Positions 25,609 through 58,766 of a stretch of DNA of 58,922 nucleotides are shown here, piece after piece (the stretch's first letter is position 1; every line of letters starts with the position of its first letter). The translations under genes and the position numbers were made by a program. Source of the stretch: Candidatus Staskawiczbacteria bacterium RIFOXYB1_FULL_38_37 (GTDB taxonomy: Bacteria; Patescibacteriota; Minisyncoccia; Minisyncoccales; Staskawiczbacteraceae); NCBI GenBank assembly GCA_001822075.1, contig MHPK01000006.1, positions 124,977 through 183,898 of the forward strand, in the 5' to 3' direction. The notes under the pieces were generated by a model. It was given only the letters and a program-made list of their open reading frames with translations, was not told the origin of the DNA and did no database searches.

Positions 25609-27112
<1,504 letters not shown>

Positions 27113-27113
<1 letters not shown>

Positions 27114-28090
27114 TAGCTAAGCGCTTCGGCTCCCGCGCTTATCTCGCTTATTTCTGTTGTTATTCTGGCTTGGCGCGATTTATTATATTGTAAATTTAAT
27201 TTATTTCCCAAATCAGATGCGTTATCCGAAGCTGTTTTCATTGCCATTCTTCTGGCTGAATGTTCTGAAGCATTGGCCTCTAAAATTAAATGGTAAATTT
27301 GCATAAAAAATAAATGCTCCGCCAATTTTTCTAAAACTTTTTCCGGCTCGGGCTCAATAGTATATTCTTTTAATTTATTTTTATCTAAAGTAAAAGTTAT
27401 ATTGTGCTCTTTTATCAAGTCGGCAAACTTTCCGCGCTCGGGTATTATTTGTTTAATTGTGTCGGCTATATGACTGTAATCAATTGGCAAAACCCTTCTT
27501 ACATGGGGCTCCTGCTTTAAAGCAGACCTAAAATGCGTTGAAACAATAATTACTCTATCAAAATCTTTGTTTAAATAACCTTTTATTAAAAAATCAAACA
27601 ACGGCCTCACCTGCTCGGGAGTTGTATAATCTCCGGCTTCAACAAACTTTCTTAGTACCGTGGACTGGTCTACGGTACTGAACTTTTTTAAAAGATAATT
27701 ATATGCTTTTTCCCCGACTGCCGCAAAAACTTTTTCTTCATTTTCGTGCTTTTTATCTTCTTTAATATGCTTTTCAAATTTTTTAAAAACCGAACTGTTA
27801 AATGCTCCTGCCAATCCCTTGTCAGAAGAAACCAAAACAAATAAAACTTTTTTTATTCCGCCAGCTGGCGGATTTCTCCTGTCTTCAAACAACGGAGGCA
27901 GTTTTTGGTCTTCTAAGCTTGAAATCGTTGCCAAAAAATCTAATGCCGCAAAAGCATACGGCCTGGAGTCCAAAGCAATCTGCTGGGATTTTCTCATTTT
28001 TGTAGCCGAAACCAGCTCCATTGCTTTGGTAATTTGTCCTATGTTATTTACGCTTTTTAAACGTTTTTTGATATTCTGCGGTGATTCCAT
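27113..28090 (-). CDS. atpG: ATP synthase gamma subunit
   Basis: ITKAMELVSATK, SSDKGLAGAFN, ASEHSARRMAMKTASDNA, NKSRQARITTEI. Confidence 0.98.
27654..27679. repeat. 26-bp near-perfect palindrome in-frame in atpG (family F)
   Basis: AGTACCGTGGACTGGTCTACGGTACT, encodes STVDQSTV. Confidence 0.7.
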
Positions 28091-28098
28091 AATTAATT

Positions 28099-28148
28099 TT
28101 TATATCATTTTATCAACCACTTGACAACAGCCCTGTATTTGCTATACT
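28099..28148. promoter_or_regulatory. overlapping divergent promoters upstream of atpG (44-bp core repeated at 28498-28541)
   Basis: Minus: TTGTCA-17-TATAAA ending 8 bp before the atpG ATG; plus: TTGACA-16-TATACT. Confidence 0.6.
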
Positions 28149-28258
28149 TAACTTGCTGATATGAACCGTATAATTACGGGTCAAATCGGGTGTCAAACAA
28201 AGAGGATTCCGAAAGGGGTCTTTTTTGTTTGATAAATTTTCTGTGATATAATCAATTC

Positions 28259-28345
28259 GTGGACTCGGGCCCGTAATTGTATGTAGTTAACATATCGGTG
28301 TTGACACCCGATGAAGCGGGTGCAAATCCCGCCGGGTCCACGCCA
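28259..28345 (+). ncRNA. atypical tRNA-like RNA (pseudo-tRNA; anticodon not assignable)
   Basis: Acceptor GGGCCCG/CGGGTCC, T-arm GCGGG-TGCAAAT-CCCGC, aberrant D and anticodon arms; extended -10 upstream and terminator at 28345-28375. Confidence 0.6.
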
Positions 28346-28423
28346 AAAAATCTGTCATTTCCTGACGGATTTTTTGTTTAACTTTGTTTAATGTCGGGAC
28401 TTTTTTTATATTTTTAATTTGCC

Positions 28424-28479
28424 TCTATAAAAGAACTGATTACTTTTTTTATTTCTGCTTCGGTTTCGTCGGTGATTTG
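28424..28479. repeat. 56-bp duplicate of the atpA 3' end
   Basis: 55/56 identical to 29477-29532. Confidence 0.92.
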
Positions 28480-28602
28480 GCATTCGGTCTATATTCTTAT
28501 ATCATTTTATCTGCCTCTTGACAACAGCCCTGAATTTGCTAATATTATAGTATAACCATGAAAAAGACCCTTGTAAGGTTTCGTCCTTGCCGGGGGCTTT
28601 TT

Positions 28603-29094
28603 TTATTTGCCCTCTAACTTTCTTCGCTGGGTATCTAAATATAATAATGGTGTATTCTGTCTTCGTAATAAATAAGAACATTTATTGCTCGGTGATACAA
28701 CAGACAAAAGTGCTTTTTTATTTTTCAAAAATTCAACGAGCTCGGCATAATCCCCATCACTTGAAACAATAACTGCTTTGTCATATTTCTTTTCATAAAA
28801 ACCAGAAACTGCATCCAAAACAAGTATGGCGTCACAATTGCCCTTAACGGTTCCAACATCATCATAGCTTACTTGTTTATAAGTTAGAATAAACCCACAC
28901 TCCTGTAAGTATTTATAGAGTTCTTTGTATTTTGGAACCAATCCCAAAAATAAATAAGCTGTCTTAATTTCATATTTTTCTGCCAGCCAAACTCTAAATC
29001 TTTTATAATCCAATTTCCAACCCAAACTCGTAGTTCCTCTATGCAGGTTTGCTCCGTCAATATATGCAAAATTGTTTTCTTTCTTATTTTCCAT
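28603..29094 (-). CDS. NYN (LabA/DUF88) domain protein
   Basis: AYIDGANL, KGNCDAILVLDA, IVSSDGDYAELV. Confidence 0.92.
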   Translation of the reverse strand: MENKKENNFAYIDGANLHRGTTSLGWKLDYKRFRVWLAEKYEIKTAYLFLGLVPKYKELYKYLQECGFILTYKQVSYDDVGTVKGNCDAILVLDAVSGFYEKKYDKAVIVSSDGDYAELVEFLKNKKALLSVVSPSNKCSYLLRRQNTPLLYLDTQRRKLEGK

Positions 29095-29101
29095 TTTACT
29101 A

Positions 29102-29130
29102 TTGACAATTATTTATAACGGGTGTATAAT
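29102..29130 (+). promoter_or_regulatory. perfect consensus sigma70 promoter
   Basis: TTGACA-17bp-TATAAT. Confidence 0.8.
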
Positions 29131-29209
29131 TAGTATATAGGCTCGATTTAGCACTTTCCCATCACTCGTAGGCAGCTACGCCTTAAAATAGCGAAAGAGG
29201 ATCAAAGCC

Positions 29210-29410
29210 ATGTCAGGTATGAGTATGTTCCCGTCGTGGATTGGGATGGTTCCCAATGTCGTTATACAAATCGTCGTCACGTGCCCTGTCTGCTATGTGG
29301 AGTTTGCTCTGACAGGAGCGAAGTTGCGATGCCCAAACGAACATCTATACCCCAACGCAGAGGAGGCTCTTCGCAAGGCGGCGAAGGATCAAAGCAAAGA
29401 CGACAAATAA
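29210..29410 (+). CDS. small Zn-ribbon-like hypothetical protein
   Basis: CPVC...CPNEH; GAGG RBS, consensus promoter upstream, terminator near 29443-29468. Confidence 0.55.
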   Translation: MSGMSMFPSWIGMVPNVVIQIVVTCPVCYVEFALTGAKLRCPNEHLYPNAEEALRKAAKDQSKDDK

Positions 29411-29466
29411 GTCGTCGCGACCCGAGTATGTGGCTAACTGCTCCCCAACACATGTTGGGCTTTTTT

Positions 29467-30987
29467 TTACTGATTTTCTATAAAAGAACTGATTACTTTT
29501 TTTATTTCTGCTTCGGTTTCGTCTGTGATTTGTCTTTCTTTTTTGATTGTTTCCAATAAATCTTTATGCAAGTTTTCAATATATTCAAAAAACTTTTTCT
29601 CAATTTCTTGCATTTGTTCCGGCTGAAATTTATCAAAATATCCGTTTAGCGCCGCATATAAAACCAAAACCTGTTTTTCAAAACTTATTGGAGCTAAATC
29701 TGACTGCTTTAAAATTTCTGTAATTATTCTGCCTTTTTGAATTCTTTCTTTTGTGGCTTGGTCAACATCAGAAGCAAACTGCACGAATGTTTGCAATTCT
29801 CTAAATTGAGCAAGCTCTAATCTTAATTTTCCAGCAACTTTTTTCATTGCTTTTGTTTGCGCCGAACTGCCTACGCGCGAAACCGACAAACCAACGTTAA
29901 CCGCAGGCCTTGTTCCTTGATAAAATAAATCTGACTCTAAATAAATTTGTCCGTCTGTGATTGAAATTACGTTTGTGGGAATGTAAGCTGTAACGTCTCC
30001 CAGCTGTGTTTCAATAATTGGCAAAGCTGTTAAACTGCCCCCTCCCTTCTCCTTTGATAATTTGGCTGACCTTTCCAGCAATCTTGAATGCAAATAAAAT
30101 ACGTCGCCAGGATACGCTTCTCTTCCAGGTGGCCTTCTTAACAATAATGAAATTTGCCTGTATGCCCAGGCGTGCTTTGAAAGGTCGTCATAAATTACAA
30201 GGGCGTCTTTTCCTTTATCGCGAAAATATTCTCCAATTGCGCACCCGGCAAAAGGAGCCAAATACCAAAAAGCAGCCGGACTTGAAGCTGAGGCCGACAC
30301 AACAATTGTATATTCTAAAACGTTATTTTGTTTTAATGTCTCAACTATTTTTGCGATTTTTGATTCTTTTTGTCCTACTGCAACATAAATGCAAACCGGC
30401 CTATTTTCTTCTTTAAGTTGGTTTATAATTGTGTCTAAAACAATTGCTGTTTTTCCTGTCTGCCTGTCGCCGATTATAAGCTCCCTCTGCCCCCTGCCTA
30501 TAGGAATCATAGAGTCAATTGCTTTTATTCCTGTGTGCAAAGGATAATTAACCGATTCACGGGCCAAAACATTTGGCGCATCGTTTTCTAAATTATAAAA
30601 TTCTTTTTTATCTTTCTCGCTAAATATCGGCCCCTTGCCGTCCAAAACATTTCCCAAGGGGTCAATTACTCTGCCCAGCAATTGCTCGCCCACTTGCAAA
30701 GACAAAAGCTGGTTTGTTCTTTTTACTGTTTGTCCCGATTTAATATGAGAGGCCTCTCCTAAAACTAAAGCTCCAATAGAATCTTCTTCCAAATTAAGCG
30801 CTACGGCGAAGACCCGTTCTCCGCTGCTTTCTACAGATAAAACTTCCAAAGCTCCGGCATTTTTTAATCCGGATATTTTTAATATGCCGTCTCCGGCTTC
30901 AACAACCTTGCCGACTTCTTCCCATTCGGGATTGTCTTTATAGCCCTCAATGGACTTTTTTATTTTTTCTAAAATCTCATTTGACAT
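29467..30987 (-). CDS. atpA: ATP synthase alpha subunit
   Basis: [42 protein letters not shown]. Confidence 0.99.
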
Positions 30988-57005: not shown

Positions 57006-58766
57006 TTACTCTACAATAACTCTTAAAACTTCTTCTATTGAAGTAAGCCCTTGGGCGGCTTTTATAAAGCCGTCCTCAACCATTGTGCGCATTCCGTCTA
57101 ATATGGCTTGCTCTGCTATTTCGTTTGTCGCTGATTTTTTTACAATTAAAGTTTTTATTTTTTCAGTCACCGGCAGAACTTCAAAAATTCCTATTCTTCC
57201 TTTATATCCGTCCGGGCAGTCTTTTGAGGGCTTGGCTCTGAAAAAATTAACATCTTCTATTTTATCTTTTGCTTTTGCCAAGCCTTCTTTTTTTAAAATC
57301 TCTAAAATTTTATTTAAGTCGCAATATTTTGATAAATTTTTTAAATCAGCTTGTTTTAATTTGTAAGGCTCTTTCTCCTCATAAATTTTTCTGACAAGCC
57401 TTTGGGCTATTATCAAATTCAAGGTTGAAGAAATTAAAAAGGGTTCAGCTTTCATGTCAATAAGCCTGGGCATTGTTCCTGCGGCTGAAGTGGTGTGCAA
57501 AGTAGACAAAACCAAATGGCCTGTTAAAGCTGCATTAATTGCAAGCCCGGCTGTTTCGTCATCTCTAATTTCTCCCACCATAATAATATCAGGGTCCTGC
57601 CTCACCAGCACCCTGAGGCCGGCGGCAAACGTCAATCCTATTTTTGAATTCACCTGCGTCTGGTTTATTCTCGGCATTCTGTATTCAATAGGGTCTTCAA
57701 CAGTTGAAATATTTACATCGGGAGTGTTTAATATCTCCATCATTGTGTACAAAGTGGTTGTTTTTCCAGACCCCGTTGGCCCTACCACCAAAATCATTCC
57801 AGCCGGCCTTTCCAAATTATCTTGCACATATTCTAAAGCTTTGTCGGCAAGACCCAACCCCTCCAAAGTAGTTGCTTTTACGTCTTCTGCGAGCATTCTC
57901 ATTACAATTTTTTCTCCGTTATACACTGGCAAAACAGAAACCCTGACAGAATATTTAAAATATTCTGTCTCAATTTTAAACCTGCCATCTTGCGGAAGCC
58001 TGTGCTCGTCAAGCTTTAAATTAGAAAGCACTTTTATCCTGGCTACAATGCCGGGAGCCACAGAAACCGGGAGGGTCATCACAACGTGCAAAATTCCGTC
58101 AACTCTGTAGCGCACAATAACCTCTTTTTCCAAGGGTTCTATATGCACATCAGACGCTCTTTGCAAAATAGCGTGCTTTAGCAAAGTATCAACAACTTTT
58201 ATTATAGGAAGCTCTTCTGCGGCCTTCTGCAATCTTTCCTTGCCTCCGAAAATTTCAGCTATGCCTTCGTCTTTTATGTGCCTTACATCTTGGGTTTCCT
58301 CTTTAATAATTTCTTTGAATTCTGTTTCCAGAGTTTTTTGGTATTGCGCTAAAGCATTTTTTATACCGCTGGTTGTGGTAAGACAGGAAACTATTCTTAA
58401 AGAAGGATTGCTCTTTTGTATAAATTCAATGGTTCTTAAGTCTTCTGGGTCCAACATAGCAACCTCAAGCTTGTTGCCTTGTTTTTTAAAAGCAATAATA
58501 TTGTGCACTCTGGCTATGGGCTCTGGAATTATTTTTAAAATTTCCGCGGGAATTGCCTCTTTGTTTAAATTTATAAAAGGTATCCCAGACAGATGCGCCT
58601 TGATTTTTATAAACTCCTCTTCTGGCAAAAGCCCTGATGCAACCAAAATATCGCCAACTTTTCTGTTGCCTTCTTTGCTTTCTAACAGGGCTTTTTCAAA
58701 CTGCTTTTCTGAAACAAGCCCTGCGTCCAAAAGAAACTTTTTCAGTTTCTGTTCGTCAATTTTCAT
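57006..58766 (-). CDS. pilB: type IV pilus extension ATPase PilB (GspE family)
   Basis: ASDVHIEP, GPTGSGKTTTLY, EDPIEY, LVRQDPDIIMVGEIRD, LTGHLVLSTLHT. Confidence 0.95.
   Translation of the reverse strand: MKIDEQKLKKFLLDAGLVSEKQFEKALLESKEGNRKVGDILVASGLLPEEEFIKIKAHLSGIPFINLNKEAIPAEILKIIPEPIARVHNIIAFKKQGNKLEVAMLDPEDLRTIEFIQKSNPSLRIVSCLTTTSGIKNALAQYQKTLETEFKEIIKEETQDVRHIKDEGIAEIFGGKERLQKAAEELPIIKVVDTLLKHAILQRASDVHIEPLEKEVIVRYRVDGILHVVMTLPVSVAPGIVARIKVLSNLKLDEHRLPQDGRFKIETEYFKYSVRVSVLPVYNGEKIVMRMLAEDVKATTLEGLGLADKALEYVQDNLERPAGMILVVGPTGSGKTTTLYTMMEILNTPDVNISTVEDPIEYRMPRINQTQVNSKIGLTFAAGLRVLVRQDPDIIMVGEIRDDETAGLAINAALTGHLVLSTLHTTSAAGTMPRLIDMKAEPFLISSTLNLIIAQRLVRKIYEEKEPYKLKQADLKNLSKYCDLNKILEILKKEGLAKAKDKIEDVNFFRAKPSKDCPDGYKGRIGIFEVLPVTEKIKTLIVKKSATNEIAEQAILDGMRTMVEDGFIKAAQGLTSIEEVLRVIVE

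Follow-up and report, generated by a model that had tools for sequence, protein, structure and literature searches.

The window analysed here is a stretch of 58,922 nucleotides (nt) from Candidatus Staskawiczbacteria bacterium RIFOXYB1_FULL_38_37 (assembly GCA_001822075.1, contig MHPK01000006.1, positions 124,977 to 183,898 of the forward strand). It contains an ATP synthase operon in which the genes atpA and atpG are separated by an insert made of duplicated gene ends, promoter blocks and two payloads. The 762-kb genome of the window is referred to as G000; other G and L labels denote further genomes and loci used for comparison, and the relatives in this Patescibacteria family are labelled Candidatus Staskawiczbacteria. 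The genes of the window were assigned from a list of open reading frames (ORFs) and a Pfam scan.

Both genes that border the insert are intact and lie on the minus strand. The gene atpA (29467-30987) encodes an F1 alpha subunit of 506 amino acids (aa; Pfam ATP-synt_ab, 2.1e-81, together with the N- and C-terminal domains), and the AtpA proteins of relatives can be aligned to residues 1-506 of its product. The gene atpG (27113-28090, with its ATG at 28090) encodes an F1 gamma subunit of 325 aa (Pfam ATP-synt, 1.7e-84) and is followed by atpD and atpC. Read along the minus strand, the order of features is atpA, an antisense Zn-ribbon ORF, an NYN nuclease gene, promoter block P2, an orphan copy of the atpA 3' end (A'), an antisense tRNA-like module, promoter block P1 and atpG. 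The Zn-ribbon ORF and NYN are the only proteins that the Pfam and ORF scans found encoded in the insert. An earlier, sequence-only reading had described two units of atpA end, payload and promoter that split the operon and carry different payloads. The order found on the minus strand agrees with that description, and the Zn-ribbon and NYN genes of one unit are unrelated to the tRNA-like RNA of the other.

The functional 3' end of atpA, repeat A (29452-29541, minus strand), runs through the last 24 codons and the stop codon into the terminator stem, of which it includes the first half. Its orphan copy A' (28391-28485, minus strand) comprises the last ~24 codons, a stop codon of its own and the 5' half of the terminator stem. 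Both were delimited by a repeat search and a gapped alignment, the latter having 98 matches over 125 positions and a score of 135, compared with 45 ± 6 for shuffled sequences. In the repeat search this direct repeat (D1) spans 88 nt at 83% identity (28411-28498 and 29464-29551). The core found by blastn (28424-28479 and 29477-29532) is identical at 55 of 56 positions (98.2%) and consists of a perfect run of 47 nt, one G/T mismatch and a further 8 nt, so that the duplication of 56 bp previously read from the letters was recovered where it had been placed. A second repeat (D3) of 49 nt and 90% identity (28096-28144 and 28493-28541) corresponds to the duplicated promoter block for which 44 bp had been given, and its two copies are blocks P1 and P2. 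The 15-mer TTGACAACAGCCCTG of this block occurs twice in the window, where 0.1 occurrences are expected, and nowhere else in the genome; the idea that the block is a genome-wide repeat was rejected, as it is confined to the atpA-atpG locus in G000. At 28485-28497 the leader of P2 (gaatatagac, 28496-28487) meets the start of A' (gaatgcc, 28485-28479) in what appears, on comparison of the sequences, to be an illegitimate junction.

An arrangement of this kind could arise if an assembler, misled by repeats, had misjoined strain variants within a metagenome bin. The same sample series does contain mosaic contigs, and in G001, the only genome of the same genus, contigs (C1:3-1451 and C39:3-959) break inside atpA at aa 477 and inside atpG at aa 14, where the spacer may be repetitive or heterogeneous. 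However, a region of 6492 bp in two other records, JGI 3300025088 and GCA_001820555.1, matches the window at 100% identity. In indexed public assemblies, NYN and AtpG proteins with exactly the sequences of the window turn up in 90-105 blocks, and for each of the 24 contigs read from among these, the longest, the look-up reported the gene arrangement of the window. Misassembly, the hazard to which the earlier reading was exposed, is therefore rejected. The repeats, at 56 and 49 nt, are also shorter than ordinary reads, and we regard an artefact as highly improbable.

The first payload begins, on the side of atpA, with a Cys-rich, Zn-ribbon-like orphan ORF of 66 aa on the plus strand (29210-29410), antisense to the operon. 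It was recognized from the ORF scan and the GC profile, having a GC content of 0.53 compared with ~0.35 in its surroundings. The ORF is equipped with a perfect consensus promoter, TTGACA-17-TATAAT (29102-29130), and with a terminator at 29444-29459. A single homologue was found, 77% identical, which sits between atpA and atpG at L093 in the absence of any other cassette. In the defence-system and NCBIfam libraries the Zn-ribbon ORF had no match, and NYN matched only generic NYN and HEC-09. The plus-strand promoter of the ORF lies in a conserved spacer, the U block (29098-29165), which was identified by matches to the gaps of relatives: directly to those of G007, G019, G021 and G009, and via G007 to that of G020. 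In relatives the U block directly precedes the atpG start or its remnant, and in G073, L086 and L093 it is followed by atpG codons. In G000 it precedes the ATG of NYN.

The NYN-domain nuclease gene (28603-29094, minus strand) encodes 163 aa (PF01936, 3.8e-16; 60.3 bits against a cut-off of 24.2) and occupies the position of the atpG start site of relatives. A search at E<=1e-10 found 2335 homologues. Identity among the best 120 is 61-88%, and all of these that bear a name come from Patescibacteria. The acidic motifs IDGAN, GNCD and SDGDY are retained in 30 homologues, and the closest solved structure is 2qip (E 1.3e-6). A predicted RNA of ~50 nt (28546-28604, plus strand) converges on the gene; its transcription would begin behind the plus-strand promoter of P2 and stop at a bidirectional terminator (28583-28597) that NYN uses as well. 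The pair resembles a toxin with its antisense RNA. Every NYN locus examined, from two subfamilies and in atp as well as non-atp contexts, has the same design of a bidirectional terminator followed by a convergent consensus promoter. The promoter and terminator 3' of NYN recur at L085, L086, L087, L089, L094 and L099, and a second NYN subfamily shows a like design at C4:56960-57487 of G000 (promoter and terminator around 57490-57570) and, in G020, within the atp gap. P2 has as its left half the promoter of the NYN cassette, which is found nearly identical beside an 86%-identical NYN in the non-atp context of L085. Small ORFs downstream of P2 were rejected because their frame is not kept between copies. 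Directly upstream of the NYN gene at L094 (positions 1-147) the C-terminus of an ORF (...YNGQRPHMALKMKSPLDVLRSF*), judged by eye, looks like an rve-type DDE transposase.

The second payload is a module of ~260 nt that is dispersed in the family. A DNA search of the 79 genomes of the family located it in 14 of them, representing 8 of 16 genera, at different loci and at no more than four matching places per genome. Alignment of 16 copies defines a unit that opens with a -35 box and an extended -10 element (TTGACA-N14-TGCTATACT). A leader of ~75 nt follows, which folds into a hairpin and a terminator-like stem, and then come a second extended -10 element (in some copies only), a tRNA-like RNA and a terminator. 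The module thus begins on its left with the -35 region, and the half of P1 that reads on the plus strand belongs to the module as its promoter. The RNA nearest to it, either a leader or a small RNA (28150-28240, plus strand; hairpin and terminator-like stem at 28191-28234), would be made from this promoter and is kept in 16 of the 16 copies. The promoter ahead of the tRNA-like part, represented in the window by the extended -10 element TGATATAAT (28244-28252), is missing in 6 of them. The tRNA-like RNA follows at 28259-28346 (plus strand), and its terminator (28344-28376, plus strand), conserved in the 16 copies, marks one end of the module. Small ORFs in the leader RNA change frame between copies and were dismissed. 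Apart from paralogous gene starts in G070, no direct repeats flank the other copies of the module.

The cloverleaf of the tRNA-like RNA (28267-28340) was recognized by the Rfam tRNA model (RF00005; 34.6 bits against a gathering score of 29) and by covariation. Among 15 distinct copies 92.3% of the cells are paired, and ten pairs with 44 cells are double-changed, compared with at most 5 in slid controls. The RNA of the window has G3:U70, a UGA triplet at the anticodon position and flanking GTGGAC/GTCCAC extensions. G3:U70 is an alanine identity element. It is invariant in 15 of the 15 copies and is combined there with 'anticodon' triplets of the form U-R-R only: UGA in ten copies, UAA in two, UAG in two and UGG in one. 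Three of these four triplets are also stop codons. The features of canonical decoding are lacking: the pair adjoining the anticodon loop is unformed in all 15 copies, a pyrimidine (C or U) replaces the purine expected at position 37, most copies have UGCAAAU as their T-loop where a sequence of the TTCRANY type would be canonical, and a long variable arm is absent. ARAGORN missed the RNA of the window but, in G007 and other relatives, called a tRNA-Ser(tga) at the corresponding position. That the RNA supplies a missing tRNA-Ser(UGA) was rejected, a canonical gene being present at C4:2814-2897, and so was a tmRNA, a normal one being present at C1:51494-51843 (104 bits; also missed by ARAGORN). 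Weak matches of the window to RAGATH-21 and NsiR1 were far below the gathering score, and in the atpA-atpG gaps of relatives no Rfam family was found at E<=0.01.

Blocks P1 (28096-28144) and P2 (28493-28541) are bidirectional promoter blocks, predicted from the repeats and a promoter scan and, for P1, from the module alignment as well. The plus strand of P1 has TTGACA (28121-28126) and TATACT (28143-28148) separated by 16 nt, and that of P2 has TTGACA (28518-28523) and, again after 16 nt, TAATAT (28540-28545). The minus strand has TTGTCA (28127-28122), 17 nt and TATAAA (28104-28099) in P1, and TTGTCA (28524-28519), 17 nt and TATAAG (28501-28496) in P2. Because the -35 boxes of the two strands overlap, each block is a back-to-back promoter pair; the two blocks have the -35/-10 spacer ACAGCCCTG(T/A)ATT in common. 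In the consensus scan the top promoters of both blocks are on the plus strand and directed away from atpG, the scan rule demanding a T at position 6 and so leaving out the minus-strand TTGTCA/TATAAA reading. Judged by their consensus geometry, from which promoter activity in the blocks is predicted, the plus-strand promoters would belong to the cassette RNAs and the minus-strand promoter would be the weaker one. The motif GATAAAATGATATAA in the minus-strand -10 region is found at atp loci only, namely in P1 and P2 of G000 and in G007, G041 and G073.

The minus-strand promoter of P1 ends 8 nt from the atpG ATG, as had been claimed, and is of a sigma70-like type (TTGTCA-17-TATAAA). Its counterpart at L086, TTGTCA-17-TAGTAT, ends 6 nt ahead of the atpG ATG. 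The near-leaderless transcript that such a geometry implies is in keeping with the genome as a whole. Shine-Dalgarno sequences precede 7% of the 639 ORFs of G000 and 5% in shuffled upstream regions, which amounts to no signal, and promoters close to ATGs are enriched: a sigma70-like promoter ends 4-12 nt before the ATG in 17 of the 639 ORFs, atpG included, compared with 2 in shuffles. Starts without a leader thus seem to be commonplace here, suggesting that mRNAs of the organism are frequently leaderless. The interval between atpA and atpG contains several hairpins and three strong antisense promoters, which makes a separate promoter for atpGDC plausible. The separate regulation of atpGDC that the earlier reading had proposed is likewise plausible.

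The gap between atpA and atpG in 21 relatives varies from 6 to 1379 nt. It is 6-23 nt in seven relatives, 45-111 nt in four and 393-1379 nt in ten genomes, G000 being counted among the last. Between atpG and atpD, by contrast, G000 and 17 other genomes have 11-168 nt, and only two genomes have a large gap. Single-cassette alleles of each kind exist. L093 has atpA, the antisense homologue of the Zn-ribbon ORF, U and then atpG directly. The NYN-only alleles are L086 and L094. L086, with a NYN 83% identical to that of the window, has atpA, an antisense ORF, U, atpG codons 1-9 fused in frame to NYN, a terminator, a promoter and atpG; L094, whose 88%-identical NYN is the closest non-identical relative, has NYN, 139 nt and atpG. 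The RNA-module-only alleles are G007 (U, RNA module, P, atpG) and G073 (U, nine atpG codons, a different tRNA-like module, P, atpG), and DNA matches indicate that G041 is arranged like the latter. The tRNA-like module of G073 carries GAU and a long variable arm, and scores 41 bits with the tRNA-Sec model. G020 has atpG codons 1-6 fused to an unrelated NYN, and G009 has 20 atpG codons followed by a third type of NYN. With duplicated atpG 5' ends occurring across the alleles of relatives, the atpG 5' end is the recurrent duplicated element. The flank that remains constant among the gap variants is P with atpG, ~90% conserved across four genera, and the copy of the atpA end is present only in G000.

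Some side observations concern these spacers. In G000 the spacer between atpG and atpD (27004-27112) is filled by an AT-rich inverted repeat with arms of 54 nt that are 72% complementary; this spacer is expanded in G002 (651 nt) and G009 (1039 nt), and at L089 it contains an ORF of 170 aa. Just downstream of atpA, the gaps of G019 (~180-660) and G020 (~180-720), with loci L034 and L033, contain GC-rich stretches of 400-500 nt with ORFs open in several frames and no Rfam match, which may be unannotated structured RNAs or fast-evolving antisense small ORFs.

The sequence-only reading had taken the atpA 3' end for an integration site, and the locus does have the appearance of site-specific integration: a direct repeat of the target gene end flanks the insert, with a perfect core of 47 nt that would correspond to attL and attR, and the copy on the side of the element restores the reading frame. 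It resembles in this respect the genomic islands at the 3' ends of tRNA, tmRNA or protein genes, where foreign DNA lies between direct repeats of such an end while the gene itself remains whole. The claim did not survive the comparison, however, and such integration is largely refuted and very unlikely. There is no recombinase in or near the insert: no integrase was found in the 1-kb insert or nearby on the contig, and a genome-wide search for tyrosine recombinases gave PF00589 matches on contigs C7 and C3 only and none on the contig of the window. A' includes the stop codon and half of the atpA terminator, and is therefore a piece of chromosome and not an att core. Nor is the site reused in relatives, which duplicate the 5' end of atpG (to codon 6, 9 or 20) and share P with atpG as their common flank; a comparable second copy of the atpA end is present in none of the 21, only weak matches of 10-11 aa being found in G019 and G020.

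The NYN genes invite a different explanation, in which NYN cuts the atpG 5' region of naive alleles, repair copies the cassette into the break, and the duplicated ends are scars of repair or co-conversion. The NYN genes in the atpA-atpG gaps of G000, G020 and G009 are only 22-25% identical and thus mutually unrelated, so that three different genes have come to lie in one gap. In two NYN subfamilies that are unrelated to each other, the ORF continues in frame from the first 6 or 9 codons of atpG (MESPQNIKK; L086 2419-2922 and G020 gap 769-1308), and the fusion with codons 1-9 is seen also in the NYN proteins P0005 and P0010. The 86%-identical NYN beside a TraG/VirD4-like gene (P0003; L085 1962-2465) retains MESLQNIKN, suggesting that this cassette moved out of an atp locus. 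Free-standing homing endonuclease genes sit between conserved genes, for example in T4-like phages, and the small nuclease genes considered here, patchily distributed at the edge of conserved genes with different lineages at the same spot, are similar to them. Unlike those, NYN is not known as a homing fold and its family is annotated as RNase-type. Its protein is also unusually well conserved: the 61-88% identity of the best 120 matches, from many Patescibacteria lineages, looks like purifying selection for a cellular role. In addition, RNA modules that have no nuclease occupy the same site, and the junction codon varies (6, 9 or 20). Homing by NYN is accordingly a quite unlikely cause of the duplications.

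The junction between atpA and atpG in this family is instead probably a recombination hotspot that gathers small, self-contained cassettes, with two alternative alleles stacked in G000. Three layers can be distinguished in the order of events that we infer. The first would be the antisense Zn-ribbon ORF with its promoter in the U block. The second would be the NYN cassette, set on the old start site of atpG and bringing with it the bidirectional terminator, the convergent small-RNA promoter and a new promoter proximal to atpG. The third would be the dispersed RNA module with its promoter, leader hairpin, tRNA-like RNA and terminator. The parent alleles would have been atpA-Zn-U-NYN-P-atpG and atpA'-RNA module-P-atpG. 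They would have been combined by one homologous crossover in a conserved flank, either atpA or P/atpG, and one illegitimate join at 28486, give or take a few nt, which attached the promoter-block leader of the first allele to atpA of the second, 72 nt ahead of its stop codon. Since each cassette would have brought its flank along as the alleles were stacked, A' and P2 would be scars rather than att sites. After stacking, the strong plus-strand promoter would direct the cassette RNA, and the minus-strand promoter a leaderless or near-leaderless atpGDC transcript.

This outcome is as expected from homology-facilitated illegitimate recombination (HFIR) or from unequal crossover. The anchor flank of P and atpG is shared by four genera and the junctions opposite to it differ. 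What adjoins the RNA module on its left is the atpA terminator in G000, the U-ATG with 12 further nt in G007, and codon 9 of atpG in G073; three left junctions with one right flank are the pattern expected of a homologous anchor combined with an illegitimate join. The genome also encodes the DNA-uptake and processing proteins ComEC (185.5 bits) and DprA (221.6 bits). Exchange at the locus may be ongoing. Positions 1-385 of L091 are 100% identical to window positions 28314-27930, covering the tRNA-like RNA, P1 and the first ~160 nt of atpG, beyond which identity is mostly 50-85%; this stretch is either a recent recombination tract or part of a chimeric metagenome contig, and no longer contigs of the organism were found. 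L099 is a mosaic NYN allele, and together the two suggest continuing exchange.

Several observations weigh against stacking of two alleles by recombination. The exact parent, in which A' with its half terminator is followed by the RNA module, P and atpG, was not found in one exact-match junction scan of a metagenome collection. The perfect run of 47 nt between A and A', with much poorer flanks, would also fit gene conversion or a recent local duplication, and no clear microhomology can be assigned at the 28486 junction. That the P block is so well conserved from genus to genus could be due to recent transfer instead of promoter function. Finally, L091 and L099 come from one sampling series and could be chimeric metagenome contigs.

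The perfect run is also what would be expected if the whole spacer from the atpA end to the atpG start had been duplicated in tandem in situ and the two copies had then suffered different losses. P1 and P2 having the same -35/-10 spacer agrees with this, and the duplication could have used an 8-nt microhomology, AATCACCG, that is common to atpG codons 2-4 and the atpA end and is present at the atpG start and in A'. The observed junction, however, retains CCAAATCACC from atpA, and the crossover was therefore not in the microhomology. A simple local duplication is further disfavoured because the right half of P2, in its spacer (agaggcaga) and leader (aatatagac), matches the atpG-proximal block of G073 and G007 better than it matches P1. 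Two further precise deletions would be required, and single-cassette alleles of both kinds are known in relatives. Tandem duplication is thus unlikely, and the stacking of two alleles is preferred.

HFIR occurs in naturally transformable bacteria (de Vries & Wackernagel 2002; Prudhomme et al. 2002; Meier & Wackernagel 2003, as cited in PMC5361080) and was proposed in PMC5361080 for stacked orphan immunity genes and for the displacement of Rhs C-termini. The locus in G000 is similar in having one conserved anchor (P/atpG or atpA), a non-homologous join opposite to it and foreign DNA beside the anchor, in a genome that encodes ComEC and DprA. It differs in that the segment of the recipient was kept and not deleted, with the consequence that a gene end is duplicated. 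Unequal crossover between two chromosomes could give the same topology. In the orphan immunity arrays of the Vibrio cholerae type VI secretion system (T6SS) and in Rhs C-terminal displacement (PMC5361080), modules are likewise added successively at one locus with a constant flank, and the displaced older pieces and orphaned gene ends are left as an array. In contrast to these, the G000 locus lies inside an essential housekeeping operon, and its modules are a cassette of nuclease plus small RNA and an RNA-gene module, not toxin-immunity pairs. Each module is moreover predicted to have a promoter able to re-express the displaced downstream genes.

The most fitting description of the locus is that of a hypervariable hotspot for cassettes within the atp operon, which is a variant of the known displacement and stacking loci. 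More unusual than the hotspot are the cassettes that it has collected, namely NYN with its convergent RNA and the tRNA-like modules of alanine identity. A more far-reaching proposal, which we hold to be doubtful, is that both are promoter-bearing selfish cassettes of Patescibacteria that lack a recombinase and settle preferentially in the opening codons of atpG and at the 5' edges of further genes. NYN would then be a homing nuclease, or else an addiction toxin to which the ~50-nt RNA is the antidote; the URR tRNA-like RNAs with alanine identity would be functional partners, decoys or targets; and the bidirectional P block would let the cassettes persist within an essential operon by re-promoting the genes downstream.

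The findings indicate that an essential, normally co-transcribed operon in a genome of 0.76 Mb can be a landing pad for exchangeable cassettes, and that cassettes with an outward-facing promoter of their own appear to be tolerated in the atp operon. They single out two little-studied elements, a conserved NYN nuclease with a convergent small RNA and a dispersed family of alanine-identity tRNA-like RNAs. Patescibacteria are thought to depend on DNA uptake, and the series of alleles with no, one or two cassettes between atpA and atpG can be used for studying how genes are gained without a recombinase in these bacteria.

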